Source: a virus
IMG/VR virus record: IMGVR_UViG_3300049491_000465
Location: 1 to 64,000 of that record
Length of the DNA stretch: 64,000 nt
Reading direction: 5' to 3' (one strand)
Under the pieces are notes generated by a model. The model was given only the letters and a program-made list of their open reading frames with translations, was not told where the DNA came from and ran no database searches. This document shows positions 9,384-57,027 of this stretch, one piece after another (position 1 is the first letter of the stretch; every line of letters starts with the position of its first letter). The position numbers and the translations under genes were made by a program.

Positions 9384-9384
9384 T

Positions 9385-19037: not shown

Positions 19038-19808
19038 ATGTTAAGAAGACATGCCGATAGGATTTTGATTAACTCAATCAATCCTGCACTAATCACAAAC
19101 GTAGTTCCTGGTGTATCGTTGACGATCGAAGGATACGGAACTTTGACTGTTGCTGGTCAAGTAGAGTCTCATAAAGAGTGCACAACTCCGGAAATCGCTA
19201 AAGTTGTTGGTGTTACAGTTGTAATTCCAGTATCATGCGAATGTCCTTACGAGTGGTGTATGACTGTTGAGTGCTTGCCAAACCTTAAAAATTATGAGGT
19301 TCAAACAACATTCCCTGCTATTCGTACTTATTGTTACGAAGATCCTGCTGGTGGAACTCCGACTGCTGCTGCTACTGCTGCTGCTATCACTGCTTCCATC
19401 AACAACGATCCTTTCTCTTGTGTTACTGCTTCTGTTGTTGGAACTGTAATCACATTGACAGGGAAACCTGGTGTGAATTTCAATGCTTACACAGCTTCAG
19501 GGGCCGTTGCGGAGGTAACTCCTTACACTCCTGCTTTGATTGATTCAGAGTATATGGCTCGTTTGTTCCCAATTCGTCATGGTTCTTTTGGTTCTCAACC
19601 AAATTTACCTCTTCCTGGAAGCGACTATTGTGAGTATCACTTCACAATTCGTAAGCAATCTGATGTTCAGGATGTTGACGGTGCGAATCATTGGAATGAT
19701 TACGAAAAAGAAGTTTACTTCTATGTTCGTCCTGATGATGCGAACTACGCAGCATTCGATACTCCTGTTGCAGGATTAATTCCAATTGCTAACGGTGGTA
19801 CTCTATAA
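19038..19808 (+). CDS. structural protein (auxiliary capsid/decoration-like), Cys-rich
   Basis: Beta-rich, AAATAAAITASINNDP, 8 Cys; crAss gene-74-like position. Confidence 0.55.
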   Translation: MLRRHADRILINSINPALITNVVPGVSLTIEGYGTLTVAGQVESHKECTTPEIAKVVGVTVVIPVSCECPYEWCMTVECLPNLKNYEVQTTFPAIRTYCYEDPAGGTPTAAATAAAITASINNDPFSCVTASVVGTVITLTGKPGVNFNAYTASGAVAEVTPYTPALIDSEYMARLFPIRHGSFGSQPNLPLPGSDYCEYHFTIRKQSDVQDVDGANHWNDYEKEVYFYVRPDDANYAAFDTPVAGLIPIANGGTL

Positions 19809-20155
19809 TGAGTTTCACTGAATTAATAGTGGCAATATCCCTATTCTGTCTTGGTCTTCGTGAGGTAACTGACGAAATAGATCAAGGCAGGATAGGGTAT
19901 CCTATTAGACGGTGGTTCATAGATCAAGAATGGATTCCATTATTTATCGCAAAGCCTATCATTCTTTGTGTGGCTTGTATGGCAAGTTTCTGGGGATCCA
20001 TTATTTACTGGTCTATTGTTTATTATCAATCCAACAACTTCGATTTTATTTCTGATCCAATGACGTATATCAAGTGGATTTTTTGCTGTACATCAGCTTC
20101 ATTTGTAAACACATTATTCTGGACAATAAGAAATAGATTCATCGGGGTTTCTTGA
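19808..20155 (+). CDS. multi-TM membrane protein with CxxC (DUF1360-like)
   Basis: KPIILCVACMASFWG at the start of a TM helix; about three TM segments. Confidence 0.6.
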   Translation: MSFTELIVAISLFCLGLREVTDEIDQGRIGYPIRRWFIDQEWIPLFIAKPIILCVACMASFWGSIIYWSIVYYQSNNFDFISDPMTYIKWIFCCTSASFVNTLFWTIRNRFIGVS

Positions 20156-20165
20156 TTAATTAGTT

Positions 20166-20831
20166 ATGTCAAAGACTCTTGCTGAAGTAGGATATAGCAT
20201 CCGAAATCAAATTAAAGGTTACTTCTCAACTGATGATGAGCGAATTGATATTCAACTTATCTATGACAAGTGTTGGGATGTAAGATCTATTTTACTGAAA
20301 GAAGAGTATCGTCAATTCAAGAAGATAAATGATCAAGATTTTACTACTGAGTGCTGCCTTGAGGTTCAATGTAGCAGTATCGTATGCAACGGAATTGATT
20401 CCGGAGTAAAAGAATTTTTCGTTCAGATACCAAAAATTGAAGCTTCCATTGGTTACGATGGAATTAAATATTTTGGTACAGTTGATAAGAAGACTCCATT
20501 CAGAAGAGTTAATTATCAAGGACACATGTTTTCCGGCCATGAGAAATATACCGGTAGAGCACCAATGTTCACTCTGGTTGATGATAAAGCAATATTGTCA
20601 AACATGCCAACGTCAGGTATGAAGTTCGTCTGCCTCATTGCTATTTTCGAAGATCCAAGAGGTATATGTAATGAAAATGATCCATTCCCATTAGCAAGAC
20701 ATTTAGTTCACAAACTTGAATTGATTGTTATTCAACAATTGATGAGCACAATTCAAATAGGACCAGATGAAACTAATAATGGAAGAGACAATTCTCCGGA
20801 TCAATTACAGAAACAAAGCCGTGTAGAGTAA
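20166..20831 (+). CDS. tail ring/adaptor protein
   Basis: IAIFEDP..C...DPFPL pattern; crAss gene-73-like position. Confidence 0.6.
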   Translation: MSKTLAEVGYSIRNQIKGYFSTDDERIDIQLIYDKCWDVRSILLKEEYRQFKKINDQDFTTECCLEVQCSSIVCNGIDSGVKEFFVQIPKIEASIGYDGIKYFGTVDKKTPFRRVNYQGHMFSGHEKYTGRAPMFTLVDDKAILSNMPTSGMKFVCLIAIFEDPRGICNENDPFPLARHLVHKLELIVIQQLMSTIQIGPDETNNGRDNSPDQLQKQSRVE

Positions 20832-21226
20832 TGGAAAATACAAACATAATAAAGCAGGTAAATCACAAAGGACATGTGACATTCCAGAATCGTGTTTACA
20901 TGGCTGGTGTTCTTTTTAAGATCAACAGTCAATGGCCTTTTGATATGGTTGTATGGCTTCGTGTTGGTTGTGGTTGTAGCGGTTCTACATTCCAAGATAT
21001 AAAACATTATCGTGTATTAGCAAGTGGACATGCAATACTTATAGATGCAAGGTACGTTGTTGAAACTACCGTTCCTATACCTATTGAAAGTCAAGACTTT
21101 GATGAGGCACGAAGAGAACAGCATTTGAATCCAGGAACAGATTTCACAGACATTGTGGCTCATCCGGATCCAGATGCAATAAGAGCATTAGCAAATGGTC
21201 AAGCTATTGATCGTTTCAAACATTAG
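20831..21226 (+). CDS. hypothetical protein with a GCGC motif
   Basis: 131 aa, TAATG-coupled. Confidence 0.6.
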   Translation: MENTNIIKQVNHKGHVTFQNRVYMAGVLFKINSQWPFDMVVWLRVGCGCSGSTFQDIKHYRVLASGHAILIDARYVVETTVPIPIESQDFDEARREQHLNPGTDFTDIVAHPDPDAIRALANGQAIDRFKH

Positions 21227-21235
21227 ATAAACAGA

Positions 21236-21688: not shown

Positions 21689-21689
21689 T

Positions 21690-22442
21690 ATGAGCGACAA
21701 TTTCAATAATCCGGCATATACTGTCAACATTAGTGTTGATCCGAGCTTGAGAGCCCTTAATGATAACTCTGTCAATCTCACATGTAACGATGGTAGTTCA
21801 ATAAATTTCCAGGCAAGTTCAGTTGAAGAAGTTGGTTCTGGAAAATATTCTTCGGTAAAAAATGTTGCCGCAAGAATAGCAAGAAATGTTAAAGGAAAAG
21901 AGTTTGACATTTACGATATCGCAGAATGGTGTGGTGAATGTGAGACTGATGAAATTGGCATGTATGAAGGTTTTGCTAAGTATCGCAATGTACCAATACA
22001 GGTCAAAAATAATAAAGGGTATGTCCCTTGCAATGTGTACCGGTTATTAAGTGTTCACAGAAATAAATGTTCTGTTGCTAAATACGACTGGGATGGTGCA
22101 TTTCTTCGATTCAACTTTGATGATCCAGGAACGATGAATAGTGAATACACTGTTTACATCGATTACCTTGGTGTGAAAGTTGACAGTGAAGGATTGCCAA
22201 TGATCTTAGATGGACATCAAGAAGCTTGCTTCTGGTACTGCATGACTAAGATCTATTTCGAAGATTATATGAATGGCCTTACTCCGGAAAATAGATTCAT
22301 GTTTCTCCAGGATCGTCTTGGTCATTATGTAAGTAAAGCAAAAACTTCATTCAGATATGTCACAAGAGATGATATGAATGAGATCCAGAGAATCATGCAT
22401 AATCTGGTTCCTAAAGTGAAAATGTCAAGAAATGTAGGGTAA
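21690..22442 (+). CDS. tail tubular/ring protein
   Basis: VYIDYLGVKVDSEGLPMI.D...EACFWY; synteny with the muzzle gene. Confidence 0.65.
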   Translation: MSDNFNNPAYTVNISVDPSLRALNDNSVNLTCNDGSSINFQASSVEEVGSGKYSSVKNVAARIARNVKGKEFDIYDIAEWCGECETDEIGMYEGFAKYRNVPIQVKNNKGYVPCNVYRLLSVHRNKCSVAKYDWDGAFLRFNFDDPGTMNSEYTVYIDYLGVKVDSEGLPMILDGHQEACFWYCMTKIYFEDYMNGLTPENRFMFLQDRLGHYVSKAKTSFRYVTRDDMNEIQRIMHNLVPKVKMSRNVG

Positions 22443-24568
22443 TGAAACTGAAGACTAAAATAGGGAAATCTGAAATCCATGGTAAAGGTCTTATGGCTGG
22501 AAAGGATTTGAAGCCAGGTGAAAACCTTGGAGTTTCTCATGTTGACAATTGGCCCACAAAAGATATTGGTGAAAACTATAATCATTCAGATAATCCAAAT
22601 GCCATGAGTAAAAATGTAGGTAATAAAAAGATTGTCGTTCCGATAAAGAAGTTAAAGAAAGGCGATGAGATTACTGTTGATTATAGAACTAATCCTGAAC
22701 TGGAACAGCCTGAAGGTTTTAAATCTGGAGGTAGTCTTTATAAGATGATGGATTATCAAAATGGAGGACCCGAAAATTCATCTTCAACACCAGTCAGACC
22801 TGTATCAAACAAACCAAAACCATTAGAGATAGCTGATCCTAAAGAATACAAGTATAGAAAATCTATGTATGATGATAGTTTAAGTCTTTTTAATGCATAT
22901 CAATTTCAGAAAAAGAATATTAATCCCACACCAATATTAAGGGAATATGTAGAGGATTACAATACCACTACTAAAAAATATTTTAATGGAAAAAGACCCA
23001 CCCTAACAGTAGATCAAATAAAAAAAACACGAGATACTAACTTCAACAAAAACTTACCTAAGTTTAGTCACAATGAATACTTAAAAACTAAAAAAGATCC
23101 ATCAGGAGGATTTGATCCAATGGATAAAGCAAGTGGAGATTATAAGATTTATGACCATAATAAAAAGTTAAATTTTAATTATCCAGTATCGTTAGGAAAA
23201 CACAGTTCTCCTGATCTTTGGCATTCAAAAATAAACCCATCAGGTTCTTATTTTGATGGTGTTGCTTATTCTCCAAAGTATAAAAAACCAATTCAACCTG
23301 TTCAGTTTGTTGAAAAACAAACGGAAACATCCGAGAACACAATTAAAGAAGGGTTAAATACAGAAGTAAAAACAATATCTCCTGAAGAACAAGCACCAGT
23401 ATCAAATACGACACCAGAATCTAAAACAACAACTAAATATCCAATTCAACAAGCTTACAGAGCTCAAACAATAATGGAGCCTGATACTGCAATGCCTGGT
23501 AAATACAAAGTAAAAGAAATAAGACAAGTGCCTTATCAAGCTACATCAGGAGATAGTGAATCAGACTGGAAAGATGTTCATGCACCAATTATGCTGTGGG
23601 TTAATGATAAAGGAGAAGAAGTTGAATATGATCCAAGAAAAGGACAAGATTCAGTTAATCATACACAAAACAACGCATCTCAAACAGAGGTTCAGAACGA
23701 AAAAGCTAAAGCAGAAAGAAGATCTCAATTCTTTGATCCAAGTGATCCCAACAGACCTTCGTTCAATAAGGGCGGAAGTATCTATGGTATGATGGAGTAT
23801 CCCGATGGTGGACCAGGTTCAATGACTCCTCCGGCAATGAGTTTAGGAATGACTGATTCAGCCGCAGGGAAAACCATGTTGAATCCATTTTACAGAGAAC
23901 AGCTTAAAATTTATAACGACTGGCCCACATCGTCAAATTTTGGATCAACCACAGCTAAGGTTTTAGAAGGAAGAGAACTTGATAATTGGTATTCAGAAGC
24001 GGTAAAAAATCAACCTGATTTAATTAAAGAAGGAGGGTTGTATGCCGGTAATTTTAAGCCATCAAGAGTTTATTTAGATGAAACAGGAATTTCAGCTTAC
24101 CCAATGTTTAATAAACCTTCAAGATATATACCGGCACCAGAACCAACCCCTCCTCCAGCTCCAGTACCAGTTAAAAGACCTGGTATGTATTTGAGTGCGA
24201 ATACCGCACAGCCAATGCCTGATAGAGGATCTCCTGGACAAGTTGATAGACAGTACAGTCAATACTTAGAAGAGTTCGCAAATTCTCCAGAACAAGTTGC
24301 AGCAAGACAATCTACTCAAGCTAACATGAGTAGTAACACAGAGTTGCTTCAAACCATGACTGAAGAACAGAAGGCTGAAGCCAGAAAAAAGAAAATGACC
24401 CCTACTGAATTTCTTTCTACACAAAATAAAAGTGATTCTGTACAGTCGTCAGGATCGATTGCCAATCCAGTTTCAACAGAAAATACATCTCCGTTCTTTG
24501 ATCCAAACGATCCTAAAAGACCGTCTTTTAATAAGGGTGGTAGTCTGTATAGAATGATGAAATATTAA
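22442..24568 (+). CDS. SET-domain protein fused to low-complexity cargo-like modules
   Basis: KSEIHGKGLMA...NHSDNPNA...KKGDEITVDY in aa 1-~85; three GG-x-LY-x-MM repeats; no Cys. Confidence 0.75.
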   Translation: MKLKTKIGKSEIHGKGLMAGKDLKPGENLGVSHVDNWPTKDIGENYNHSDNPNAMSKNVGNKKIVVPIKKLKKGDEITVDYRTNPELEQPEGFKSGGSLYKMMDYQNGGPENSSSTPVRPVSNKPKPLEIADPKEYKYRKSMYDDSLSLFNAYQFQKKNINPTPILREYVEDYNTTTKKYFNGKRPTLTVDQIKKTRDTNFNKNLPKFSHNEYLKTKKDPSGGFDPMDKASGDYKIYDHNKKLNFNYPVSLGKHSSPDLWHSKINPSGSYFDGVAYSPKYKKPIQPVQFVEKQTETSENTIKEGLNTEVKTISPEEQAPVSNTTPESKTTTKYPIQQAYRAQTIMEPDTAMPGKYKVKEIRQVPYQATSGDSESDWKDVHAPIMLWVNDKGEEVEYDPRKGQDSVNHTQNNASQTEVQNEKAKAERRSQFFDPSDPNRPSFNKGGSIYGMMEYPDGGPGSMTPPAMSLGMTDSAAGKTMLNPFYREQLKIYNDWPTSSNFGSTTAKVLEGRELDNWYSEAVKNQPDLIKEGGLYAGNFKPSRVYLDETGISAYPMFNKPSRYIPAPEPTPPPAPVPVKRPGMYLSANTAQPMPDRGSPGQVDRQYSQYLEEFANSPEQVAARQSTQANMSSNTELLQTMTEEQKAEARKKKMTPTEFLSTQNKSDSVQSSGSIANPVSTENTSPFFDPNDPKRPSFNKGGSLYRMMKY

Positions 24569-24580
24569 AATTTACACACG

Positions 24581-27500
24581 ATGCCAGTACAAAATAATGA
24601 ATTTTTCAAAGGAGACAACAGGGATCTTGATGTTCTGAGAATGCCGAATGATACAGCTCGGAGACTTCAGAACATGCGTATTATTGATGTCGATGGAAAA
24701 GGTCTTGTTTGTACTAATATTGGTGGTAATGAATTCAGATTCTCTTTGACTCATGGATTCATTCCAATTGGAAGATGTGAATACAATGGTATAGGATATA
24801 TCGCTTCAGTTAATCCTGATACAGGGGAAGGTGAAATAGGATGTTATCCTGCACCAACAGCATTAGCGGATCAGAATCCTTCTGCCGTAGGATTTGGTGC
24901 AAAGGTATATGCTCCGTTATTCAATTTTACCGGTGGAAATATTTCGAGAGATCCAAATTCAATTGCTCAAGCATTTAGAACTCCATTGTTCAATTTTGAT
25001 TGTCACAATCAGATCGACATGTTTGCCAGAGAAGATTATGATGGATCTGTAAATCTTTATCTTGCGGAAAAAGGAAATCCATTAAGGGTTATTAACTCTG
25101 GATTTGATAAATCAGGTGCTCTTACATCGATCGGAAGAAGATATTGGAATGGATCGTTCCCAAATGCAATCAGCTTGATTAATGAGTCTGAAAATCATAT
25201 TGACGTTCAATTCACTGGTCTTGGAAAAGCAGGATCATTAAGAGGTGGTAACTGGATATTCTTTGTTCGTTATGCTACTGAGAATTTTGACAAGACATCT
25301 TTCTTTACAGAAACGAATGCAATAATGATTACATCCGGTGAATATGCAAACGAAGGCATAAGACATCATGGTGTTAAGGGTGGTGAAGTAACAGACAAAA
25401 GTGTTAATCTTTCGTTTTCCGATATCGATCCAACATACTCTTATCTTGAGATAGGATACATGTATTCATTCAATGAATCACAAGAGTTTGGAATCATTGA
25501 TAAATTGTATGCACTCGATCCAAATTCCTCAACAATAAACATTGAGATAACCGGATACGAAGGTAGATTTGAAACAGGATTCGAAGAGGTTATCAGATCG
25601 AAAGTAAGATTTGACGGAGCCACAACTCATACCCAATTAGAGAACAGATACTTTGCTGCTGATCTTTTTGACAATACTGATTTTGATGATGATGCATCTC
25701 AAGATATTCTTGATTTTGCTCAGAAAATAAAACCAAAGTATGATGATTCAAAACTTATAGCACACATTTCTGGATCCGGATCTCCAATTGGTATCTACAA
25801 CAATGTTGATAACACATACAATTTCACTGGTCATTTTAGAGGAGAGTCGTATGCTTACGGTATAGTTTGTGTTTTGAACAATGGAAGAGAAACTCAAGCT
25901 TATCCAATAGAAGGTGTTGATGATTACAATGGAGTTGGGGGTACTACAAATCAAAATGGTATTTATAGATTTCCGAATATAAACCTATCTCAAACTGTTG
26001 CCGGTAACAATATTCGTGTTATGGGTATCAAGTTCGATATATCGTCTGCAATCGCTTCAATCCCTCAATACATCCTTGATAACGTATCAGGGTTTTACTT
26101 TGTGAGATCTAAAAGAAATGAAACATTACTGTACCAAGGACTTACACTTCCTTGTTACAATGCTGCTGAAGGGAAGGACATTAGAGGATTATGGTTTGCT
26201 TTTCCAGATTTCCCACAGATTCTTAAAAGAAACGAGAATCTGGTTCCTATGTTTGAGTTGAATGGAGATGATGAGAATGGTGCTGAGTTTCCGTACATAC
26301 ACAGATTTGATCCAGACGATCTTCTTGACAGGGAGTTTACCTTTGTGTTCTGGCATAACAATCTGAATAAAAGAATTGCCAATAAATTTGGATTCTATTC
26401 TCCAGATCACTTCTTTAACAAAAGTGTTGGTGTTAATAAAGCTTTTGTTTCAACATTCGCTGATGTTACATTCAATATCTCTCAAGAAGATAAGTTGAGT
26501 AAGCCGGATTATTTTTACGGTGATAATACATACACCTATATTCTTGGACCAAAATCCATGTATGACATTGCTAATATCAAAGAGTGGGAACCGGCTAATA
26601 ATAATGGATATGCTTCCTATTTCAATGAAGGTGCAAAAAGTGATTTCAATGGTAACTTCTATTTCTTTGCGAAAAACTTACTTGGAACAAAGTATATTGA
26701 GGTAAGAAATCATGAGATGGCTTGGAATTCATACATTGGAATCAATTCATCTAATGCTTTAAGATATAGATTGTCAAACATTTACAGAACAAATGTTGAT
26801 CCTTCTATTTTTGATATAAATGATCTTTATGACATCAAGGCAACTGAGTATTACAAGATTAGTAAGTTCTACAAAATATCAGATGTCGTAGCTGATCCAT
26901 CGATTGTAAACGGTAACATCTTTTATCGTGGAGATTGTTTCCTTCAGAGAACTTGGTTGAAGCAGTTATTCAATCCTAAGTACGGTGTAGGTGTGAAAGA
27001 TGATGGAGGAGGCGTGTTCGGATGGACAGCAGCACTTCCGGGACCAATAAAGGAACGGTTATTCACATTTGGTACATCATTCAGTATTATCACTGAAAAC
27101 AAGATTAATACCGAGATGCGTTTGGATAATGCAATTAATAAATATTACCCCGGATCTGTTGCTCTCATATACGATCATGCTGCAAAAAACATTGAGAAGG
27201 AATCTCAGGATTTGAATCGTGGATACAATGAATTGTTGTCTGTAAAATCTTATCGTGGAATTGATAGAGAGATACCGTTTATTCCAGAAAAGAAACACGC
27301 TGCAATCATGGTGAGTAACAAGCATGTTCTCGGATCTTTCCTTGATGGATACCGTGTTATTGATCAGAATGCGATTCGTGATTACGATTACAGAATGGGT
27401 AAAATTGTTCGTATAGGAGTATTGAATAACATACTTTTGAGCGTTCAAGAATTTGGTGTGAATAGACATTTTGTAAATGAAAAAGCTGTACTTAATGGGG

Positions 27501-28495: not shown

Positions 28496-28507
28496 AAAAC
28501 GTAAGTT

Positions 28508-29509: not shown

Positions 29510-29512
29510 GAG

Positions 29513-30988: not shown

Positions 30989-31018
30989 AATAATGTTGCT
31001 AAATAATTCGTTTTTAAG

Positions 31019-31026
31019 TAGATTTG
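31019..31026 (+). promoter_or_regulatory. Bacteroidota-type -7 promoter element TAGATTTG
   Basis: Matches TAnnTTTG in the gap before 31044 and the giant ORF. Confidence 0.55.
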
Positions 31027-31043
31027 ACAAAAAGAAATAGGTT

Positions 31044-32990: not shown

Positions 32991-33020
32991 TGTTTGTTTT
33001 GAATTTTAGAATAATTAAAT

Positions 33021-51000: not shown

Positions 51001-52265
51001 CTAAGATTCTTGGAGTTAATGTTGATGCTGCTATTTCTTCTGTTGTTCAACTTGCTTCATTCAATGGTCTTGCATTAAATGTTCCGGTAGCAGCTTCGTC
51101 TGCATTAATGAATGCCGGTCAATTAATGAACAGTGCAATAGCAAATGATATGGCTACAAATGGTCTTTACGGAAAGGCTGAAGCTATGAAGGCTATTAAA
51201 ATGTTCGGAACTGTTGAGGGTAGAAAGTTCATTGAATCAATTATGGATATGTACAAGGTTGCTGATCGTACAGAAAGAGACATGATGCATAATCCAAGAA
51301 TGAAAGTGACAAACAAGAATATCTTCACTTCCCATCATGCTTACTGGATGAACTGGTACACGGATTATAATGTTCGTGGTATTGTGGCTGCTGCTCAAAT
51401 GATTAAAGACGGTTCTATCGCTGCTTATACTTTAAATAAAAAGACAGGCAAACTTGAGTATGATGAATCAAAAGACCCTAACTTTAAGGGAGAAACTGGT
51501 GAACATTTCAAAAACCACATCAAACAAAGGTTAATCGAAGAGGGTGTTATGAATTCCATGGACGAAAAAATGCCAAGAGGATACGATCACAAGATGGCTT
51601 CTCAATTGAAGCATCTTGCTGACAAACATGTTGTTGGTAACTTGGATGATGCAACAAAAGGTCGATTTGGCCGTACTGTTGCAGCTAAACCATTCATGCA
51701 GTTCATCTCCTGGCTACCTACTAAAATGGTGAATTATTTTGGTAGCACTAAAGCCTCTGCTGTTGGTGGGAAATATGTCACCAACAAGAATGAGCATGGT
51801 GAGGCTGAAACTGTATGGGAACAAACTGTTCAAGAAGGCATCTTTACTACTTTGAAAAACATCCATAGTGAGTTAAGAGAGAATAAATACAAATCAATGC
51901 GTTCTTGGAGTGAAATGAAACCTCATGAAAGATACAATGTCACAAAACTTGGTATCGATTTGATTTCATTCACTGTACTTTACGGATTGTATGCTGGGCT
52001 TACCGGTGACTGGGATGATGAAGAAGGTGATCAAGCAATGGTAGAGGATTCAAGATTAATGAAAGTATTCAAGTATTCAGCAATGGATTATCTTGCTTTC
52101 AATCCATTGAAGATTACAGAGAGTTTATTAACTGTTCCAGTACTTGAACAAGCAGAAAGATTATCAGGAATTTTCATTGGAGATTTTAGTGGAGTAGAAA
52201 GATCACTACCTTTGAGTTCAACAGTAAGATCTTTCTCTGAAGTTTTAAGTGACGAAGAAAAATAA
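33021..52265 (+). CDS. giant virion polyprotein: SF1 helicase + PD-(D/E)XK nuclease + two-barrel RNA polymerase + zincin protease
   Basis: GFAGTGKT (37392), IIIDEAS, LGDQSQ, TAISRAK; GTIDII..ILDIKT..QLATY; ETDG, RIP and GGDYDID (45654); HEMIH (48282)..EFLSEA. Confidence 0.85.
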   Translation: MAEDQLSNEAQDLELPQDPIQETSVPESSIPEADPPVKKSYSVPKEHVDFYGLTSIYGNSDADVFEMQKTKPQKILSMMPKEEAFKHYSEEAKRMGLDWTPEKFEQDYSFREKQYANYKKGVFDHGTGFDHTFNRSWSNLFADMISPYEFNPSSAWVKVNPLDTQFIHEDGELKRVKTKDESMYDLGFVLTDIQGDKVKNVYGDYVKNERKYKEIEIGGRKMRVLDLEAHKDDFFNTSRNNPGPEGNTVLVASELPDGTPAWKEETIGKISGKVHSDEVASVYGPRSMRQSWHENLWMASLPNAAASIQTSIVGFADYIKDAFGYGNVYLKNMTGGIGSTESISALYQAGTPDWLDKADKEYRDHAAWMKPKAPENVRGAGAFDSAQSFAWSGGAVAGELIKMIAARNFSSWAGKTVGMTQMGAAKLGGYMGSGTMAISAADQFKQSMIDNGISEDNQFLLYGPALVSSFFVERLGGNILDDGLKSFYAKQNVKKYVDEGIQEQVKLFGLKSASEMSKEQVRSTGKVVWNKIFDASKSMGALGVKAAGVAEKYAPISIKAAWEEGMEEAVEGRIYTALETIHDMHQAHDARMGKDLDRYTYSSSPDEKNFYEVDRLTGIKRKISSETYEKMSSAQKIKPGNGMFGEYNPELGLISNWTNRATEGLVEDFVLGAFAGGLMTGAGKLTNGKDAQKEKTLQDYVVRGNGDIMRSKFAEMHEKGLFGPTDINTQDKVHNPQDENSLSLNDMGYQTALKELEEAELTFKLTGLEGDALKEMMESEYGHSLLKEAYNNVGKQRDLQSEIDDINKEMSETTDPQLIKNLQEKITDKTRLKEDLNIQLGEIRSGDRMIQSVSDYAIKDWSSQNNTGIIDPNGNKVTPGIAELKNVSDRYDSKKAAEIEKINEAKSKRVQLENEVGSFSKSKIDPLSAESNVFEKISDIQIKASEVGLSESGTKSMMDKLQGIRKDILRGIDQFFTAEQITEAETSPDEEALMTMAKSGIAGSDAEKIAKTYDDLDRSIKSFNVDKKPEIKKDDFVQWTQSGQSQFDQPRKVTKISDDGEFGFVEGSDTGIPISQLHDPNYTGGRVRGSIPESFDESTFKRNFYDTYIDTQGNEVSINQTMSDLASRKMNSEDEKTIELLNQAISNNDYLANVNHNVLKDLSSSKDINLGKYKPSDESILNDDEYKAVINDLADKKNRLRDLSEVQKKDANNKKNREGKLRYNDYKMRNDILVLASNVEHISLDSRNEIARLKAQISEALDLIKDSYSSEKQYKREYLDQVDPLLVKAETILHYEFNGDNRIEIIEGITAQFKQYKGYGPYKSQIYHNASEFVMHDFENVFDYSSFSEQVVNNGKSKGAAFMANIQFANTYFTNHLQTIDRLDPKRFFDFYANSVAGLDLESGQVPSYEQIKSIYHTTAFMSNQKTDLLWKVQDILTGAKNEKSKEMHFNRALFLRGFAGTGKTSLVIKYASNIFSDMNQRDLVIDVVAPSTELQKSLSSNLVSFRSNSTNPSMDYYSLVDHILNPKSTIDKTDLIIIDEASNLSKSQLKDLRTALSKSRASKRLSVIFLGDQSQMTSVNSTVNELVAVERIMERTMPTTEVFRSGAADISNLQNSFRSSTFQRKEAILPKGTYDKEKNNGLHYFGGTKKEMYDQFISDLNDGGDFKKNNTALIVYKKSDREAAMNYVRKALKDGSFDLDSKIKTIEEGEFSAQGLGYGRIYVAIDQADAAHLYNPAMLTAISRAKRIDDEHNGFASVLSTRGFSQEGSPLIVETKTASAEDIERHKSWVSSIIGMPVESSDKAQKEASSTISDVTSANFNSLKSNLSSILGKGKIEFTEGGFIADGLRFRYKIKNKPVQSVTQKLSSATSQSETDRTLDPHAKRGNAVHRIVEAHLLKQQKKGGKLFTKQDIDAIKGYVKSYNDQVAKWNELAKPESRLQTIDLNNDEATFETNKFIQDVISNVAIPIANKLNQGGKYSIPESVIGIYYNDIAGTIDIIDHVGMDGDIPVVDILDIKTLTPSAYKFFGDGNVESKLKLPIITSPTGETYAASGLNKALSQLATYKAMLENGDTETGFKPMKVRNVTIIKSSLTGANEVSSIVNDDFVTYDTESSDFKKFKDYGDMTVSNGVILQNKNTRNYDPSDEALGSLITTPEGSSVEVTGSFKDVDGNQSYELNNDINNPVSSDKFSELELNNISKEISEDPTMMNSERVYKRSAVSHSNGNTFSFSTASTSVDNGKPGYANDHFKFKSEFMKVIAPKMNFGSPNAPKVNMVFHPELQLLNDKGELQMFKNVVASYISEDSISDIVKAAKTLPWATGMTDAQIMKEIKDRNYLLLSTLPHPDSNFGKTERDIDYTDQAQVQKLIERIKNGFTTDGVADKFKPQLVQYHTDLVSYRSLGAKNPGEVFATVKLKGLSNPSVIYDGKQRSMDSLLTGLSAKGFKIGKPYFGSKLYQKVDANGKVSNIASWAVDVWRVSPSVDSSRIILRTGEFDDNHYSELKKNISDLRSNKALTHGEINQSLAMGFILQNRSFLIDPTTGKLTEEIPGLSNFIKVDGHTIDLNVDGKKTIPALIDSLSKAIDLLNGSRKSNNKVAKNLRQSVPFVIGDNNMRVIPSGMESKLFTSASDVHSFGIELGMSVVKTESETGVYGGMTSPSKSDEDLLKNMGIIDPNPNKGGIAFMEDIEEEPGIPLSGHESSSDPDSTPVNEKDRTFYDFATRYFGDIRIMNEIKKDVSRILIQNSNYNRDLNTPTMSNTDMLAKAWDHYSRLSALIAKDYSSIDVKSGNNHYTNLSEISGDTAHLLYEDKSAFSRYFNYAVGSDQELFFAIVDRALPNLNIKKMNKLDIGEALALRMNSFLDRDAEGVTEEEKDIMSANENSQTSVMDSINSRAFTDTLSGFVHLMKNHVKLKEYSIDPKTGDLVGSETGGYINPKTIEKSLVDSAQTSSPLKGDLMEQWVNNFLEIANRSGVGSPTYNHLMSFHDDFFGDQMSHKYLRDNAIRTGGESSLIEIKTGANPEIIKAKAKASSDLLSALYSHMVSVSSKKYIKMNLNSSGDKISRKIKTQSLAVGVQVVQDIKSRMNNALFSMSENGIEINPKVSELITEGQNQRYRINSSGVFDLAGGKATKLIGFTTQNGKIVDFVIPDGIASQDIKDLLNIINLKGDVVYTTTIKTYMGNESDSNPDPEKRRDRSKIAEIVGMFMLTTKNAVNPSPSETSLLDAYYKENGYTKDSLDDLNDDGTVDMEKTGTDIYKPTDLYRLIENLAKVQSEIGLNNHADFFYNVNGDKVYKHTNGNTFLRLFSNADVGDKLPTSNIKEYYKEFVLSDQNIENIIYNPNVARANDGKIKVLNTLMDPNSDHHIMDAYVVDGTEGNFKSVQQGKSMTDMDYVDFSINGMFVDDILSGKKIQNIRLPYHQISNKSAYVAEHNFGSNKFTHTENGIIADRAWINENISKIFFYHNSARRVSYLRWRNALVSMGFNVDRTTFEGWMTDPQSFKNTLSMASQSLGKVNKGASFNDFITGSTELVENRDYKIGRDGSVLPGNAPMMTIDSVYNWKNFNKLKEASAGVSGLTVDELIDSLFYKRHIDTASHFSRNGFKLDQRLNNNNWLLKQSDKKNAKGFSIWKVNPTLESYLYAWHIADHNLSQLTMGDASQYKDISDVIKRSSGPFAQSWRPDTSSPNGIGKFSNAVIIEDIQGETYEQLETIFGQPGNHVETDGLGIINPISLTIMKNSYGGEELGVIGKGMLKPVYFKPDMNTNDAVYFKYALLPLTQQVLENSSIARETFRKMVTPEMFEMWQSGKTFDEIADYVVENGLQQDMLMQAVFKSGNKTGNRGVQKFDSPEWTTSVEVDNDFFGIQLNPSQDVESTENMAGPSQLNATLGIGSQNTERVSALNELKAGIAVDALAKMKGDFSTDGNFDPKKFEDYLRKIGQKSSEKTGEITKFAEMLYDDKVDLNIPTQRTKLIQMYMNRITSDVISPRWNGVRMSQAPGFMFPIYMDVDGNPYMENEYKKYFGEPGPESMSRSLQPMKFYKDEKFINEITSQEEFASLMETGEVFVKPGDVIVPFSYFEKFGLKEYIDADPSFSLNDVFMVQLEDGNLANVRSMNEDETSILIDRAFDSAKDKKEEGLDQDAITFLQKKFSSASAAKAFIKEFREALQVIPDRIPTSSTSFGWIGEITGWINDNGNTVFTSAQKNILDGGDYDIDQLNIYFKFLDSNGKIVKGDSKQGKINQMFDLITEYYNDPKNAEIFMKRLSMEKLESQVEEIKRTQTKFKGHHNDFGTNIYYYDNIKQGDSLIGIFANIVKTFSYLSHVSTKADGLSSKVEINSNSLNSSGEYISNVLERFLNAAMDNVKESILGYLGATEDAGNLIGAAAIKGMDEIEIANLLKNDVVVDVFRKMKNSKRVTSAKKSNILDVIDSKIEDITKRNSIDLREDLEKQLKELKGKIGAPSEDEGIDDAYVAEFDRLQEMINDADNFEVVKQDQLDVLYRLKDLAYFGESISRLNSIIRIDSVGAPVFDYHIEKQIRDVEYNLGMPLDDFLAGKTGSSDWYKSRKTYLTFDDSQKLEEREPAIRSYLDLQKITKELPHIMAYLEALNEGRNNMKNTFIRNSKLIQDLSDSFLGKMKMDWFRSERSYYSFHNEVDNFFIATFFGTHFKGKMFQSQFGLTKGSESVNISTREGRYQFGIEFPTSVIEEADRIRRKPKEELTPRELDLVENTFLNSLTVNSTPSGDFLEFKNSWKLTEDDFRDLRASFKKLPAAWKEKFYVYQLAKDGFNFTKGGLYEAMDNELFRMYSTFLDKVKGAVDTYGTDKETPFDFIDSNGVLVQKTLSEIFDSNFLEDVGAMSDEMNLLPFEPREGGFEPHLQPDQHKVREKNGSFTVSKVKKKGLDSTFQPSSKKTFNGYDPLNSVLTTMDVIRKISKDTYKKLKSGAEATIRFNGKVQYKLKDAYIPDGTLVRIKSATSNSITVLPIVSTNPMNVYQSKTGKEDLLNSIVENSKNDLNSKLAKSILEMTDPKFLQRGLVNFTNEDADATFNDQREKGNKTPGYWDQASRTIGMNMSQIRDINKLEHVFLHEMIHDITFNAMEITDQEADSLGEKGQRIKEFKENIEKIYQKAKLAYTDSGEKHYGMKDATEFLSEAISNPEFQRFLSNQEIEESVGTSFIDKVKDLYRAVIGSIRNLLGISEKDAPYTMLDQVVGLVIRHAKAGDYDFKTSSNTSEGKVFFSEDSKPETEVNETKDIINSLQPDGFSKTYTQYQEEQLVTDIYNSIDPKTGIYYYNGDKFYFKSKEGEMMDELSAKNKIKNEVVPKFTEFETNYKNSVIGWLNNGAQVDGSLPATFFPKKGGTSRYSQGTLGEMRRLIDHDVNDFYVRYSELKNNEEFKDIPYIAEFEGFDPIVSIHKSIDGSNMSISIFDATSLRLNKKGILEGNIFKKHIADDYEARNKGVTLGNNEGDVRRLLLGLQVMAMKKANPDLKIKHVGVLGVSNKSIDSTWVFMEDFVSNVKAMNGIEAIMKTLPESIKDIVSDDSLHKQDYDQPWIFMLRRKFQQRVQDLDGIENQEFNIKKINDSVSQIDAYLNGQGSKDEVLNMMIHRMEEIQNTYHKDEELLNDKEYIYLSNTIREMSAVASFDKNGTKDLDTIKSFLTPTPDISHDIVNWAQEQIFKSMRIVQDKVRDFQNDKFVPILKDFNNRYFKKYPEQRAMDYLQDLSGKKFMPLFKTRKVKDQSGNDIEVNSMEIHWDMNDAETKEAIRTNKISTKDVEFGKFIVDTLEEQMIENILHSKRHDKGFKKEDAKKDLDRKWRRGMIPVMSSSVNEMLMKKDAKSAKAAYDKFFRQLTNLDDIYDEVDKQKLKDTKRQKILKEMTDFFMNQIGLDSDIYGSDARMKMMGLRNDITGPILMDSNTNENLSTNLELITMYMVSSSERKRVFDKKVLPYVNAAQTMLHNPQLSGLDGDQQVTKSYFQNYINSVLKGMPETTDSKILGVNVDAAISSVVQLASFNGLALNVPVAASSALMNAGQLMNSAIANDMATNGLYGKAEAMKAIKMFGTVEGRKFIESIMDMYKVADRTERDMMHNPRMKVTNKNIFTSHHAYWMNWYTDYNVRGIVAAAQMIKDGSIAAYTLNKKTGKLEYDESKDPNFKGETGEHFKNHIKQRLIEEGVMNSMDEKMPRGYDHKMASQLKHLADKHVVGNLDDATKGRFGRTVAAKPFMQFISWLPTKMVNYFGSTKASAVGGKYVTNKNEHGEAETVWEQTVQEGIFTTLKNIHSELRENKYKSMRSWSEMKPHERYNVTKLGIDLISFTVLYGLYAGLTGDWDDEEGDQAMVEDSRLMKVFKYSAMDYLAFNPLKITESLLTVPVLEQAERLSGIFIGDFSGVERSLPLSSTVRSFSEVLSDEEK

Positions 52266-52271
52266 TAAGAT

Positions 52272-52628
52272 ATGAACTATTACGAATTACGAGATTGTTC
52301 TAATATTCTGCCCGACATCTGGACGGATGCTGATTTGAGTGATATTAACTTGAATCAGCTCCTCCAGACTGTCGAATATCCTGGTGTATGCTGGGAGATT
52401 ATACAGATTGTCGATTTAGATCCTCAAATGGATCCTATACCGCCATTGACGGTAATAACTCCAGTTGGACCTGTATTCAATACTTGCATCGATTGTACAA
52501 GCAATATTATTCAAGGTTGTACAGATCCAAGAGCTTGTAATTTCAATCCTTGTGCAACTATTGATAATGGTAGCTGCACCTACAATGATATTACAATAAG
52601 GATTCTGTGTAATGATGATAACAACTAA
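52272..52628 (+). CDS. Cys-rich small virion protein with a GCTDPxACNF repeat
   Basis: 9 Cys in 118 aa; GCTDPRACNFNPCATIDNGSC. Confidence 0.65.
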   Translation: MNYYELRDCSNILPDIWTDADLSDINLNQLLQTVEYPGVCWEIIQIVDLDPQMDPIPPLTVITPVGPVFNTCIDCTSNIIQGCTDPRACNFNPCATIDNGSCTYNDITIRILCNDDNN

Positions 52629-52642
52629 AAATTAAAACGATT

Positions 52643-54517
52643 ATGGCTACTAAATCTTATTATGTATCTAATTTTTACACAGGATATGTTAGGAAGTCAA
52701 CTGACTTATTTGCCACGCTTGGAACAGATATTCCTATACCTTCATCTGATTCCAATCTTGAGGCTATCATGTGTGTTCCTGGCTTTTCTGACAGAGTTAT
52801 AACATGTGGATCTAATAAACGAATCTATTTATCAAATGACGCTGGTGTAAATTGGGTATTAGCTCTTGGTGATTATTCCACAACATCAAACAATCATCCA
52901 ATAAGAGATCTTTGGATTTTGGATCAAAACATTTCTTATGCTGTTGGTCCTGATGGTGCTTGTATGAAATCGATAAATGGAGGTGCTACATTCAATTTAA
53001 CCCCAACACATCCAACTGATACTGGTTCTTTAAGTGTAGATCATCATTGTTCAACACTACATTTCACCAATTTATTATCTGGAGTTGTTGCTACAATTAA
53101 AGATGGTGAAGGTGTTTTTGTTTATAAAACAATTGACGGAGGAGATACCTGGACTGTATTGAATGCTGGTTTACCAATAACAAATGACATTGATGCTGGT
53201 GGTATTCACATGACAGCAGATCAAACAAAAATCATTGTCGTTTGTGCTTCAGGAATTTACACATCAATAGACGGAGGTGTTTCTTTCGGTTTAACTCAGC
53301 AGTTACTTGTTAACAGTACCCCGATAGGTAGGCATTTGACAAGAACTTCTGATGACAACATGTATGTTACATGTCTTTACACAGGGTTTTACCGATCTAT
53401 TGATCAGGGTCTCACATGGATTGAGATAATTACACCGGTTGAATTTGATCCGGATTTCGTGTCATCTTTCTTTTACACGCCAACACAAGGTTTAATTTCT
53501 ACTGGTGGAGAACTTTGGGATTGTAGTGATACTGGTGTTGATTTTAATCAGGCTTTAGAGACTGCTGGCCCAGCAACATCGATATGGATTGAAACAGATC
53601 TGAACATCCCTATTCTTGATTGTCCACATTTCAATATTGACATTACAGGACCTTCATGTGCTCCGGATTGTATTCAACCAGGATCCATTGTTCAGTTTGA
53701 TCTTGGAGGAAGCATCAGTTCAATTGTATATCCTACAACTATAAGTTTCAAGGTTTACAATAAAGCCACAGATCAAGAGGTTTTTAATGCTGAATATCCG
53801 GTTGCTGATGATGATAAGTTAAATGCTATCATTATTAACTTCATAGCTCCTGAACCAGGGAGTTATTGCTCTTATGTAAGTTTCCCTGGATGTAATACAA
53901 TCAAGGCTTTGTGTTTTGATGTTTGTGAACCGTTTGACATTTACAAAGATGAATGTAATAAATGGCATGTTCATCGTCCAGAACAATCTTCAAGAACAGA
54001 GTTTCTTGTTGATTTAAGAGAACTTGAGGGTGAATACTTGATTACAGATCAATTATGGGATACTGATCAAGATAACACTTTTGAGTTTGAACTTACTGGA
54101 GATGGTATTTATATCTTCGAAATGAAAGATGTGGATACTGGTGAAGTTATTTACAGTTTTAGTTCATTTGAAACATGCTCTCTTCAGGAATGCTATATGA
54201 TTATGATGGATAAAATCATGTGTAGCTGTTCTGATCCTTGCTGTAAAAAATGTACTGGTGTTCCTGATCAGCATAGAGAGTTTGCTCGAATGACATTGAA
54301 CAAATTGGTTCCATTGTATTTAACATACCTTGGTATGGCAAGAAGAAACGAGCTATACACCACTGGAATGAAATTAATTAGTGATGAGCAAATATGTTTT
54401 TTACATGATGCCAACCAGGTTCTTGGAAAGATTTTAGAAATAATTGAGGATTGCGGATGTCTTTGTCCAGAGCAGAAAAATACTGCTTCAAATAGAGGCG
54501 GATGCACAAGTTGTTAA
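52643..54517 (+). CDS. BNR/Asp-box beta-propeller protein with a Cys-rich C-terminus (putative receptor-binding/tail)
   Basis: SNDAGVNW, SINGGATF, TIDGGDTW, SIDGGVSF, SIDQGLTW. Confidence 0.7.
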   Translation: MATKSYYVSNFYTGYVRKSTDLFATLGTDIPIPSSDSNLEAIMCVPGFSDRVITCGSNKRIYLSNDAGVNWVLALGDYSTTSNNHPIRDLWILDQNISYAVGPDGACMKSINGGATFNLTPTHPTDTGSLSVDHHCSTLHFTNLLSGVVATIKDGEGVFVYKTIDGGDTWTVLNAGLPITNDIDAGGIHMTADQTKIIVVCASGIYTSIDGGVSFGLTQQLLVNSTPIGRHLTRTSDDNMYVTCLYTGFYRSIDQGLTWIEIITPVEFDPDFVSSFFYTPTQGLISTGGELWDCSDTGVDFNQALETAGPATSIWIETDLNIPILDCPHFNIDITGPSCAPDCIQPGSIVQFDLGGSISSIVYPTTISFKVYNKATDQEVFNAEYPVADDDKLNAIIINFIAPEPGSYCSYVSFPGCNTIKALCFDVCEPFDIYKDECNKWHVHRPEQSSRTEFLVDLRELEGEYLITDQLWDTDQDNTFEFELTGDGIYIFEMKDVDTGEVIYSFSSFETCSLQECYMIMMDKIMCSCSDPCCKKCTGVPDQHREFARMTLNKLVPLYLTYLGMARRNELYTTGMKLISDEQICFLHDANQVLGKILEIIEDCGCLCPEQKNTASNRGGCTSC

Positions 54518-54520
54518 GCT

Positions 54521-54976
54521 ATGGCGTGTTGCGAAGATAAAATAACAATGAATGATATCTTGTTCCGGGATTACTGGGACAAGATGTTTCCATATTTATC
54601 AGACAGAATATGTGATGTTCATAATTTTGAAGTATTCGGTAATTCAAAAGGGGCTTTAGAGCAATATGATCTAATGAACGAGATCTATTACATGTTTTTG
54701 TATGGATATATCGCTTATTACGAACAGGAAATGATGCTAAAGAAACTTTATCCATCAGCACCAGGTCAATGCCCGGATAAAACACCGGTAATGAAAGACG
54801 TATGGGATAAATTTGGCTTTGAATGTAAAGCTGATTACTTCCGTTGTAAGCATGGTATTGATCTAAAAGATGTATTAATTCGAGTTTTTGGTCTCGGTAC
54901 AGGTATTGGGAAAGGAATTGACTATATGCGTATCGAAAATGATGACGATTGTATTCCACCATTTAAAATAAAGTAA
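54521..54976 (+). CDS. Cys-rich structural protein
   Basis: Starts MACC; C-terminal GIDYMRIE; 7 Cys. Confidence 0.55.
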   Translation: MACCEDKITMNDILFRDYWDKMFPYLSDRICDVHNFEVFGNSKGALEQYDLMNEIYYMFLYGYIAYYEQEMMLKKLYPSAPGQCPDKTPVMKDVWDKFGFECKADYFRCKHGIDLKDVLIRVFGLGTGIGKGIDYMRIENDDDCIPPFKIK

Positions 54977-54978
54977 TC

Positions 54979-55965
54979 ATGATTGTAGGAAGAGCGTATT
55001 TTTTTACACCGACAGTTAACACGGAGCGTTTCTTGTCGAAAGATGAACCGACAGAACAAGTAATGAGAAATTTCTTGGATTCTATTGCGTTTAAAAAGGA
55101 GGCTTCTGATACAGCCTCCGAAACACAACAAGGTCTTGTTGAAACAGCTACACAAGCTGAGTTTATTGCCGGAACTGATAACAATGCAAATGGATATGCA
55201 TTGTATGTTCGTCCTTCAATGATTAAGTCAACCCTTGATTCTATTGTTTCGAATTTCAACTCACAGATCTCAACGATCACTAATGATATAACGAATCTTC
55301 AGAATTCAGTAACGAATCTTGAGAACAATGTAACAAACCTTACCAATACGGTAACTCTTGGTTTCCAGGAACAAATGCCGATTGGTTCAATGATTGAATA
55401 TCCTGTTGCTACACCTCCAAATTCAAAATGGTTGTTGTGTGAGGGTCAGACATTAAACACTGGATCGTATCCTGACTTATTTGCATTGATAGGATATAAT
55501 TTTGGTGGAGCTGGTGTTAACTTCAATCTTCCTGATAAAAGAGGTAAGTTTACTGCTGGATTTGATTCTGCCGGTTCTGCTGAATATCAAACTATTGGAC
55601 AAGGTGGCGGTTCAAATGATGTAACATTGACAAATGCACAAATACCAAAACATAATCACGTTTTAGATACTGGTGTCGATGGTGCAAGTCAATCTGATCC
55701 AGGGGATCATAATCACCGTGGAGGTTATACATTTAATTCAATATTAGAAGGAGGAGATGTACCGCCTGATCAAACATGGGATATTGATGAAGGAGGTGCT
55801 GCTGGTCCAAACTTTAAGCGTGTTGGTGCTGTTCCATTTTCTGATGGTGCACACACCCATACTGGTAATACTGGTGATGGAACTACCGATGGTCTCAATA
55901 ATCAACCTCACGAGAACCGTCCGGAATTCGTAGTATTCCCTACAATGATTAAAGTATTAAATTAA
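54979..55965 (+). CDS. tail fibre protein with a phage tail-collar domain
   Basis: PIGSMIEY..PP..WLLCEG..YPDLFALIG..FNLPD.RG; HNH/HTH repeats; heptad coiled coil. Confidence 0.85.
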   Translation: MIVGRAYFFTPTVNTERFLSKDEPTEQVMRNFLDSIAFKKEASDTASETQQGLVETATQAEFIAGTDNNANGYALYVRPSMIKSTLDSIVSNFNSQISTITNDITNLQNSVTNLENNVTNLTNTVTLGFQEQMPIGSMIEYPVATPPNSKWLLCEGQTLNTGSYPDLFALIGYNFGGAGVNFNLPDKRGKFTAGFDSAGSAEYQTIGQGGGSNDVTLTNAQIPKHNHVLDTGVDGASQSDPGDHNHRGGYTFNSILEGGDVPPDQTWDIDEGGAAGPNFKRVGAVPFSDGAHTHTGNTGDGTTDGLNNQPHENRPEFVVFPTMIKVLN

Positions 55966-55977
55966 AAATTGAATAAG

Positions 55978-57027
55978 ATGTCTGGATGTGGATCTTGCGG
56001 AAGCAAAAAGAAATGTAATTGCCCGGAACAAATTCCTGGGCCAATTGGACTTACCGGCCCTCAAGGCCCACAAGGTCCTACCGGTGATCAGCCGGCTTAC
56101 GAATGGAATGGAACTCAAATCAGATTTGAGAATCCTGATGGATCATGGGGTCCATGGGTGAATCTTCAAGGACCTCCGGGACCATGTTCTTCTGGTACAC
56201 AAGGATTGCAAGGACCACAGGGTCCTGCTGGGCCTGCTGGTCCAAGCGGACCTGCTGGTGTGTCTGGTCCTCAAGGTATAGAAGGTCCTATCGGTCCTCA
56301 AGGTCCAGCCGGTCCATCTGTTATACTACCTGATTCAGGTTGGCAAGACTTACTTGGTTTTGAGTTTTACACATCTCAAATAAAGCCTCAAGCCAGAAGA
56401 ATTGGAAATATAGTTTATTTCAGAGGTACTGCAATTATTCCTTTAAGTTCAACGGCAGATGGATTGACCCTTGAAGATCCAGCAGGATATATTTCAGAAG
56501 CTTCTCCCTATTCTTATATTGGAGTTGGAGGTGTTGATGTTAATACTAATGGAAGTTTGATCTTCAACGATAACAACCCTATAATCCCTCCTACATTGGG
56601 AATAGTTCCTACGGCAGGTAATTATTTTGATAGTATTCGTATTAATCCACAAATAGCAATTAGGATTGTTGATACTTCAAGTGCTTCAGATTCAATAGCT
56701 TTGAGTGCCTGGTTGAATGTTCAGATTTTAGCAAATGGTAAGTTGCAAGTTGTAACTCTTAAAGATCCGGAAATAGCTTCTGGTAATTCAGGTTTACTTG
56801 GATCTTCTCATTTGCGATATATAACATCAAATATTAGATCTGGAGAGAATGTTCCTGATTACAATAATGCAGGATCAGATATACACAACTTTAGTGCCTC
56901 CGGTTTACAGCCTGTTATTGTTGATGCAAGTGTAAATACATATACATTTTCTTGTGATGCATCTTTAGCAGAACAAGTTGGTGGTTTTGCTTTTACTTTA
57001 GATGGATTGACATCTTTTATAGTATAA
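55978..57027 (+). CDS. collagen-like fibre protein with a Cys-rich N-terminus
   Basis: G-X-Y runs; starts [15 protein letters not shown]; ATG at 55978. Confidence 0.8.

Follow-up and report, generated by a model that had tools for sequence, protein, structure and literature searches.

A CxxC membrane protein gene coupled to a capsid auxiliary protein gene, and the partition of cysteine among virion proteins, in a distant crAss-like phage

In this study we analysed the virion gene block of IMG/VR virus record IMGVR_UViG_3300049491_000465, in which the gene of a 115-amino-acid (aa) membrane protein with a CxxC motif directly follows the gene of a cysteine-rich capsid auxiliary protein, and in which cysteine (Cys) is distributed very unevenly among the virion proteins. 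The window, that is the whole stretch of DNA that was analysed, covers the first 64 kb of this record of 77,884 bp, the completeness of which was estimated by CheckV at 93%. Profile search of the window open reading frames (ORFs) found the Crassvirales virion module, with Pfam matches to Crass_capsid, CrAss_Ring_2, CrAss_Ring_1 and crAss_MUZ, and the major capsid protein (MCP) is only 23–26% identical to the capsid proteins of gut crassviruses. The window comes from a distant, uncultured crAss-like phage. According to the original prediction, the membrane protein and a set of Cys-rich outer virion proteins make up a phage-encoded system of disulfide formation; the ORFs, Cys counts and motifs on which it relied were all recovered in place.

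The genes of the virion block are listed in Table 1, and those without an established name are called here by their start position. The proposed coupling of the membrane protein gene to a structural gene was confirmed, as the stop codon of 19038 runs into its ATG (TAATG) and the adjacency of the two genes is kept in crass-like lineages. In every crass-like locus covering both flanks the membrane protein gene lies between the auxiliary and the ring protein 2 (R2) genes, at a distance of -1 to +14 nt from the auxiliary stop codon, and the neighbouring auxiliary homologue always has 6–17 Cys. This pairing spans lineages of 42–91% MCP identity (50% in L167, 42% in L088); the family genes in L117 and L167 were found by six-frame search with a hidden Markov model (HMM). 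Phages crAss001 and phi14:2, whose auxiliary proteins are poor in Cys, lack such a gene at the same junction, and the family profile found no member in either of them, while the positive controls responded. For crAss001 this is true at the level of the sequence family only, given its fold analogue gp97, described below.

Table 1. Genes of the virion block, with their positions in the window and the basis of their assignment
Feature	Position	Strand	Basis and remarks
Major capsid protein (MCP)	15918..17372	+	Pfam Crass_capsid E=1.8e-39; 484 aa, 1 Cys
Ring-like virion structural protein	18291..19013	+	Weak PHROG 'virion structural protein' match; C120 and C201 invariant, 16 homologues
Predicted capsid auxiliary (cement) protein, crAss001 gp36 type	19038..19808	+	256 aa, 8 Cys, CEC; AlphaFold2 (AF2) model and Foldseek
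Membrane protein, 115 aa, three hydrophobic segments	19808..20155	+	LCVACMASFWG plus CC; hydrophobicity scan
Tail ring protein 2 (R2)	20166..20831	+	Pfam CrAss_Ring_2 E=1.7e-13; PDB 7qog_C gp40; 221 aa, 7 Cys (ECC..C..C)
131-aa protein with invariant GCGC (C47, C49)	20831..21226	+	No Pfam or PHROGs match
Tail ring protein 1 (R1)	21690..22442	+	Pfam CrAss_Ring_1 E=3.6e-23; 7 Cys
Cys-free 708-aa protein, N-terminal SET domain	22442..24568	+	Pfam SET E=2.5e-5; 0 Cys
Muzzle protein	24581..28495	+	Pfam crAss_MUZ E=7.6e-42; 1304 aa, 10 Cys
Two Cys-free proteins, 491 and 648 aa	29513..32990	+	Putative cargo
6414-aa ORF, 0 Cys	33021..52265	+	Position is that of crassvirus virion RNA polymerase and cargo genes
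118-aa protein, 9 Cys	52272..52628	+	ORF call and Cys count
Distal tail protein, 624 aa, 28 Cys	52643..54517	+	BNR/Asp-box-like N-terminal part; Cys-dense C-terminal part, ends GGCTSC
151-aa protein, 7 Cys, begins MACC	54521..54976	+	ORF call and Cys count
Collagen-repeat tail fibre	55969 (or 55978)..57027	+	Pfam Collagen, PHROG tail fibre; N-terminal CGSCG..CNC

Cys content was compared with a background of 1.37%, which is that of the window proteome minus the giant 6414-aa ORF. Enrichment by count is strong in 52272 (P=4e-5), 52643 (P=8e-8) and 54521 (P=0.005), marginal in 19038 (P=0.026), R2 (P=0.034) and R1 (P=0.059), and was not found in 20831 or 55969 against this background. The outer proteins had been described as unusually Cys-rich as a whole, which holds for the first three, is borderline for the next three and fails for the last two; the distal tail proteins of the window contain 4–8% Cys. 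Conservation was judged across 9–16 relatives per protein, and invariant among them are C48, C67, C69 and C198 of 19038, C64, C69 and C74 of R2, C47 and C49 of 20831, and C81, C114, C127 and C180 of R1. Such conservation supports a function beyond the raw counts.

A stronger signal than Cys enrichment, and one absent from the original prediction, is the exclusion of Cys from proteins of the ejected type. Nine virion proteins together hold 4 Cys in 10,074 aa, and the 6414-aa ORF has none at all (P=3e-39). Its orthologues in the near-complete relatives G004 and G005, of 6829 and 6790 aa, are likewise free of Cys; because they share only 23–38% identity, selection against Cys in this presumed ejected RNA polymerase/cargo polyprotein appears absolute. 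In the same two genomes the 52272 orthologue (G004) has 11 Cys in 125 aa, the 52643 orthologues have 37 Cys in 803 aa and 75 Cys in 1399 aa, and with a further distal tail (fibre) protein of 66 Cys in 1696 aa the partition is stronger there than in the window. As a separate observation, G005 (L071-L072) encodes at 30100-40598 three successive distal tail proteins of 1399, 1696 and 397 aa, the last with 17 Cys, directly after the Cys-free 6790-aa ORF.

Two further observations concern the distal tail genes of the window. The N-terminal half of the 52643-54517 product gives weak signals of BNR/Asp-box and sortilin-type beta-propellers, and conservation is concentrated in its C-terminal 320 aa (65% identity to G004), where most of the Cys are also found. 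In the collagen-repeat fibre (55969-57027) the N-terminal cluster consists of four Cys and stands just ahead of the Gly-X-Y repeats; it could serve as an inter-chain knot or as a covalent dock to the tail.

The AF2 model of the 19038 protein, built from 19 homologues (predicted local distance difference test, pLDDT, 80.7), had as its best PDB match 7qof_a, the 333-aa gp36 of crAss001 (Foldseek E=3.1e-8, probability 1.00, TM-score 0.52). FliD and flagellin were also matched, further down the Foldseek list, and a FliD-like relation of the gp36 fold is described in the crAss001 structure paper (PMC10172136). Judged by its modelled fold, 19038 is an auxiliary capsid protein of the gp36 type, with PH and FliD-like domains, predicted to be exposed on the capsid surface, much of which it would cover by analogy with gp36. 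Identity with the hub protein THA was ruled out by BLASTP, and the fold search gave the auxiliary capsid protein instead.

Among the 19 homologues, no variable Cys column of 19038 is gained or lost without its partner (pairs 74/99, 79/128, 208/221 and 60/137; 0 mismatches), and the patchy distribution of the 79/128 pair points to repeated joint loss. As far as an alignment can tell, this is the behaviour of disulfide partners and not of Cys4 metal sites. It bears directly on the alternative that the Cys clusters are sites for Zn or Fe and that the membrane protein holds or delivers the metal through its C14, C54 and C57, an explanation that we consider quite unlikely. The terminal clusters CGSCG..CNC, CSCSDPCCKKC and GCGC do look like metal knuckles, and the invariant C48, C67-x-C69 and C198 of 19038 could make up a Cys4 site; the variable Cys of the same protein, however, come and go as independent pairs and not in fours. 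Metal binding would, moreover, leave the total exclusion of Cys from the ejected proteins unexplained.

The closest structural reference is crAss001, whose structure (Bayfield et al. 2023, PMC10172136; PDB 7QOF-7QOJ) shows disulfides that join hub proteins to each other and to ring proteins, link R1 with R2 and occur inside the gp57 dimer. These ring and hub Cys, solved as disulfides, also speak against metal sites. The two phages share the gene set of MCP, auxiliary capsid protein, R2, R1 and muzzle, a tail collar with Cys available for inter-subunit stapling, which is solved in crAss001, and cargo and RNA polymerase proteins that are nearly free of Cys. In crAss001 the corresponding counts are 11 Cys in 215 aa for THA, 5 in 225 for R2 and 5 in 104 for gp57, against 7 in ~7,480 aa for gp45-gp50. 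Since disulfide-stapled crassvirus tails are known from crAss001, the tail part of our observations extends a known principle. The differences lie elsewhere. The crAss001 auxiliary protein has 1 Cys and its fibres ~1%, and the phi14:2 auxiliary protein has 0 Cys and its fibres about 1% or less, whereas the window auxiliary protein has 8 (6–17 in its relatives) and the distal tail proteins are several times richer than those fibres. Compared with crAss001 and phi14:2, the novelty is that stapling would also take in the capsid surface and the fibres. Furthermore, crAss001 carries the THA and THB genes between its auxiliary and R2 genes, and in this place the window clade has the CxxC membrane protein, which is unrelated to THB. 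The 115-aa protein was considered as a candidate THB, since it matches crAss001 gp39 in size and position, and was rejected: gp39 is soluble and has no CxxC at the corresponding place, and no profile similarity was found between the two.

The family of the membrane protein was gathered by exhaustive HMMER search, which yielded 129 representatives, mostly of 100–130 aa, of which 50 were aligned. C54, C57 and S60 are invariant in all 50, so that the CxxC proved to be conserved, and C14, G16, P50 and G63 are conserved in at least 90% of them; C14, which lies in the first transmembrane helix (TM1), is absent from a subfamily with a long loop. In the AF2 model (pLDDT 95.5) the CxxC stands at the N-terminus of helix 55-75. 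Mean numbers of lysine plus arginine residues are 4.3 in loop 1 and 2.4 in the C-terminal tail, whereas the opposite side averages 0 and 0.3, a pattern shared by 50/50 sequences. By the positive-inside rule an N-out/C-in topology is predicted, with the CxxC at the cytoplasmic start of the second helix (TM2), as the original prediction had expected. Because these counts put loop 1 and the C-terminal tail inside, C14, C54 and C57 would all lie in the cytoplasmic leaflet. Three conserved Cys at one membrane face would suit a set of metal ligands as well.

Similarity searches with this protein gave little. There was no Pfam, PHROGs or NCBIfam match for the window protein, no Pfam match for its 50 relatives and no tblastn match in GenBank phages; Foldseek of the model against PDB returned nothing below E=3, and a wide VIA-align search of PDB gave a best Z of 6.2, with generic helical proteins among which DsbB and VKOR were not seen. 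Profiles of DsbB (PF02600) and VKOR (PF07884) had no match at E<=10 in the whole phage record, the DsbB controls having responded; nor did the Erv1/ALR profile (PF04777) have one at E<=10 anywhere in the phage genome, and neither thioredoxin nor glutaredoxin was matched in the phage record. These searches leave the 115-aa protein as the one redox candidate that the genome encodes.

The original prediction held that the membrane protein oxidises virion Cys to cross-link the particle. Formulated in full, this 115-aa protein would be a cytoplasm-facing membrane thiol oxidase, the CxxC of which takes electrons from nascent virion Cys and passes them to quinone; the co-translated auxiliary protein would be its first substrate and the structural disulfides would form before lysis. 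We regard this explanation as doubtful. The disulfide-like covariation, the invariant CxxC, the predicted topology and the gene coupling, on which it draws, were borne out; a likeness to DsbB, VKOR or Erv1 and an encoded partner were not found, and catalysis would be a reading of the sequence. In its favour, the motif is found at a helix start, with hydrophobic residues between the two Cys and in the predicted cytoplasmic leaflet, in the sole candidate redox protein of the genome. Tailed phages assemble in the reducing cytoplasm, and proteins with 75 Cys are hard to fold there; spontaneous oxidation after release is also possible, and would make an enzyme unnecessary.

DsbB and VKOR, with which the comparison had been drawn, span the membrane with four helices, depend on two essential Cys pairs, expose their active sites to the periplasm and work with a soluble partner of the thioredoxin fold. 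The window protein resembles them as a small helical membrane protein whose CxxC, with hydrophobic x-x, stands at the end of a transmembrane helix near the position of the quinone. It differs in having three hydrophobic segments, a single invariant Cys pair predicted to face the cytoplasm and no encoded thioredoxin or glutaredoxin partner; C14, as a possible third Cys, is missing from the long-loop subfamily. Together with the lack of DsbB, VKOR and Erv1 profile matches and of any such fold among the PDB matches, these differences argue against the oxidase. In concept, the nearest likeness is to the poxvirus E10R-A2.5L-G4L pathway and to Erv1/ALR of the nucleocytoplasmic large DNA viruses (NCLDV), both examples of virus-encoded disulfide formation in a reducing cytoplasm (PMC13576161). 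Those enzymes, however, are FAD-dependent, have the Erv fold and use thioredoxin-like relays, for which no matches exist in this genome.

Other tailed phages also assemble in the cytoplasm and then carry many covalent disulfides. The virion of phage Jabs is described as having about 1,700 disulfide bonds (PMC13419713), and PD491P1 and siphovirus tail tubes are disulfide-stapled, as cited in a 2026 paper (PMC13576161). These bonds belong to solved structures from other phage groups, whereas those of the window are deduced from sequence. In the accessible parts of both papers no enzyme is assigned to the disulfides of Jabs, PD491P1 or siphovirus tubes (PMC13419713, PMC13576161). According to the 2026 paper, a dedicated thiol oxidoreductase has yet to be described in bacteriophages (PMC13576161), a gap which an oxidase of the proposed kind would fit. 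That the 115-aa protein and its DUF1360-like relatives are unrecognised minimal membrane thiol oxidases of tailed phages, serving the disulfides of capsid cement and tail fibres, is a rather improbable but testable extension of the same idea.

The genomic surroundings of the family bear on the oxidase from both sides. In crass-like phages the strict order of a 6–17-Cys auxiliary gene followed by the family gene, and the absence of the latter at the Cys-poor junctions of crAss001 and phi14:2, are in its favour, although this correlation may reflect a single ancestral event; phi14:2, moreover, has Cys-enriched R2 and g087 without a detectable family member. In a non-crass phage group of ~44 kb the family gene has a fixed place between the terminase gene and that of a Cys-free protein of 700–1000 aa. 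Co-occurrence was scored when the 10 kb downstream encoded a protein of 300 aa or more with a Cys content of 2.5% or higher; such a protein was found near 10/20 loci with the gene and 0/5 loci without it (one-sided P=0.057, the loci being related). The expected co-occurrence with Cys-rich virion proteins came out as a weak, non-independent trend, suggestive but not established. L113 and L138 go against it, as they keep the gene with an intact CxxC beside a downstream 10 kb that holds 0.54% Cys. In L084:2646-17185 and L085:407-11765, in turn, long-loop versions of the family (211–224 aa) stand among very large proteins with 28–43 Cys each (2–4% Cys), one of which matches a PHROG virion structural protein family. 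As to gene order in the ~44-kb group, contigs L087, L091, L095, L097-L105 and L106-L130 (the complete ones being ~44 kb) have the terminase, 1–3 small genes and the CxxC membrane protein, followed downstream by the Cys-free protein, a ~700-aa protein and often a Cys-rich protein of 380–880 aa (10–24 Cys).

Some relatives lie in replication modules, which counts against a virion oxidase: they are found between SSB and RecA-like genes near those of DNA polymerase and ribonucleotide reductase (RNR), or adjoining ThyX. The contigs concerned are fragments, for which CheckV completeness suggests much larger phage genomes.

The membrane protein had also been called DUF1360-like. Fold search against BFVD gave DUF1360 proteins as the only named neighbours (probability 0.93–1.00, TM-score 0.57–0.64), and in the top ESM Atlas cluster PF07098 was assigned to 14% of members. 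The second-best fold match was gp97 of crAss001 (probability 1.00, TM-score 0.64 against the window protein), a 139-aa membrane protein (L174:18419-18838) annotated as DUF1360 and having a CxxC of its own (F-C-I-Y-C-S-T-T-W); its gene adjoins one with a TROVE domain, far from the crAss001 structural block, and no study of the role of gp97 was found in the literature. The architecture agrees with that of DUF1360 (PF07098) in a TM1 that ends in an R-x-(I/V)-T-x-x-D-like turn, a loop helix, an invariant CxxC-x-x-x-W starting the next transmembrane helix, and a third one. Mycobacteriophage PG1 gp7, a DUF1360 protein, is likewise encoded in the packaging/head block, directly before the portal gene. 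At the sequence level, the window protein and its relatives score below the gathering threshold of the Pfam DUF1360 profile, by which the positive control PG1 gp7 was matched at 2e-11. Alignment of profiles with hhalign placed 107 columns in register with the DUF1360 alignment, the CxxC falling on CPWC, at a weak E=0.075 (probability 0.75%), and with crAss001 gp97 at E=0.0021 (probability 13%), which is statistically weak too. The motifs tell the families apart: CPWC together with a conserved S-H in TM3 marks DUF1360, and C-x-x-C-M-A-S-F-W-G with a conserved Cys in TM1 marks the window family. The label is fair for architecture and modelled fold and falls short of proven homology. The near-invariant His that accompanies CxxC in the DUF1360 alignment would agree with metal binding. 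Literature on DUF1360 and on yjcA contained no functional data, and since DUF1360 has no assigned function, membership in it would not explain the mechanism.

It is also conceivable, and in our view unlikely, that the membrane protein is unconnected with virion Cys and serves as a holin-like timer of lysis, in superinfection exclusion or as another effector of the host membrane that is encoded in the late operon. Its size and the three-segment N-out/C-in layout resemble class I holins, holins are among its weak BFVD neighbours, and the genomic context of the family varies between phage groups. A probable lysis cassette is nevertheless present elsewhere, at 7837-10254, upstream of the terminase gene and ~10 kb upstream of the membrane gene. 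It contains an endolysin gene (9385-9885; PHROG, 4e-22) flanked by ORFs with a single N-terminal transmembrane segment (7837-8139, 8883-9383) and one with a single C-terminal segment (9907-10254), and a holin role for the 115-aa protein is less likely because of it. Holins and exclusion proteins would, in addition, rarely keep an invariant CxxC-S-WG across 129 divergent representatives, and the place beside the auxiliary gene has remained fixed while the flanking genes diverged to ~30% identity.

The account that we favour, and to which we give an even chance, combines a virion divided by its use of Cys with a membrane protein that acts in maturation or assembly of the auxiliary protein. Very probably, as judged from the sequences, the outer particle is disulfide-stapled and the ejected proteome is kept free of Cys. 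Proteins that stay rigid on the outside (19038, R1, R2 and the distal tail, 52272-57027) would carry conserved, pairwise co-evolving Cys that form disulfides, and those that would have to unfold through the tail (the SET protein, the neighbouring cargo and the 6414-aa ORF) would have been purged of Cys. The 115-aa protein would be a conserved late membrane protein, DUF1360-like, with a thiol or metal site (C14, C54, C57) in the cytoplasmic leaflet, produced in a fixed ratio with the Cys-rich auxiliary protein and most likely aiding the maturation or assembly of the latter at the membrane. The bonds themselves may equally close without a dedicated enzyme, once the subunits are packed and the particle meets oxygen.

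Several points weigh against this account. A role of the membrane protein in morphogenesis is suggested by gene position only, and its relatives in replication modules (SSB/RecA-like/RNR, ThyX) and crAss001 gp97, encoded outside the structural block, do not share that position. A CxxC that is kept without exception at the start of a helix is more usual in redox or metal sites than in proteins that assist assembly passively. The covariation in 19038 could in principle reflect paired metal ligands. Finally, the Cys-rich capsid surface is a feature of this clade without solved precedent, since the auxiliary proteins of crAss001 and phi14:2 have 1 and 0 Cys.

Cryo-electron microscopy of 2023–2026 has presented tailed phages stapled by tens to ~1,700 disulfides (crAss001, PD491P1, Jabs, siphovirus tubes) in spite of the reducing cytoplasm. 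Against this background the locus offers a concrete, testable gene pair, in which a capsid cement protein with paired Cys is translationally coupled to a membrane protein with an invariant CxxC. If the protein were an oxidase, it would give phages an equivalent of the poxvirus and NCLDV pathways and account for virion disulfide networks, for which an enzyme has been missing. Even if it is not, the near-total exclusion of Cys allows injected virion proteins of crass-like phages to be distinguished from retained ones by a simple rule read off the sequence, and a widespread uncharacterised family of phage membrane proteins gains a motif, a confident model and a predicted topology.

The SET protein (22442-24568), which we infer to be ejected cargo, is encoded between the R1 and muzzle genes. 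Its N-terminus is homologous in relatives, in which the total lengths are very different (1012 aa in G004).

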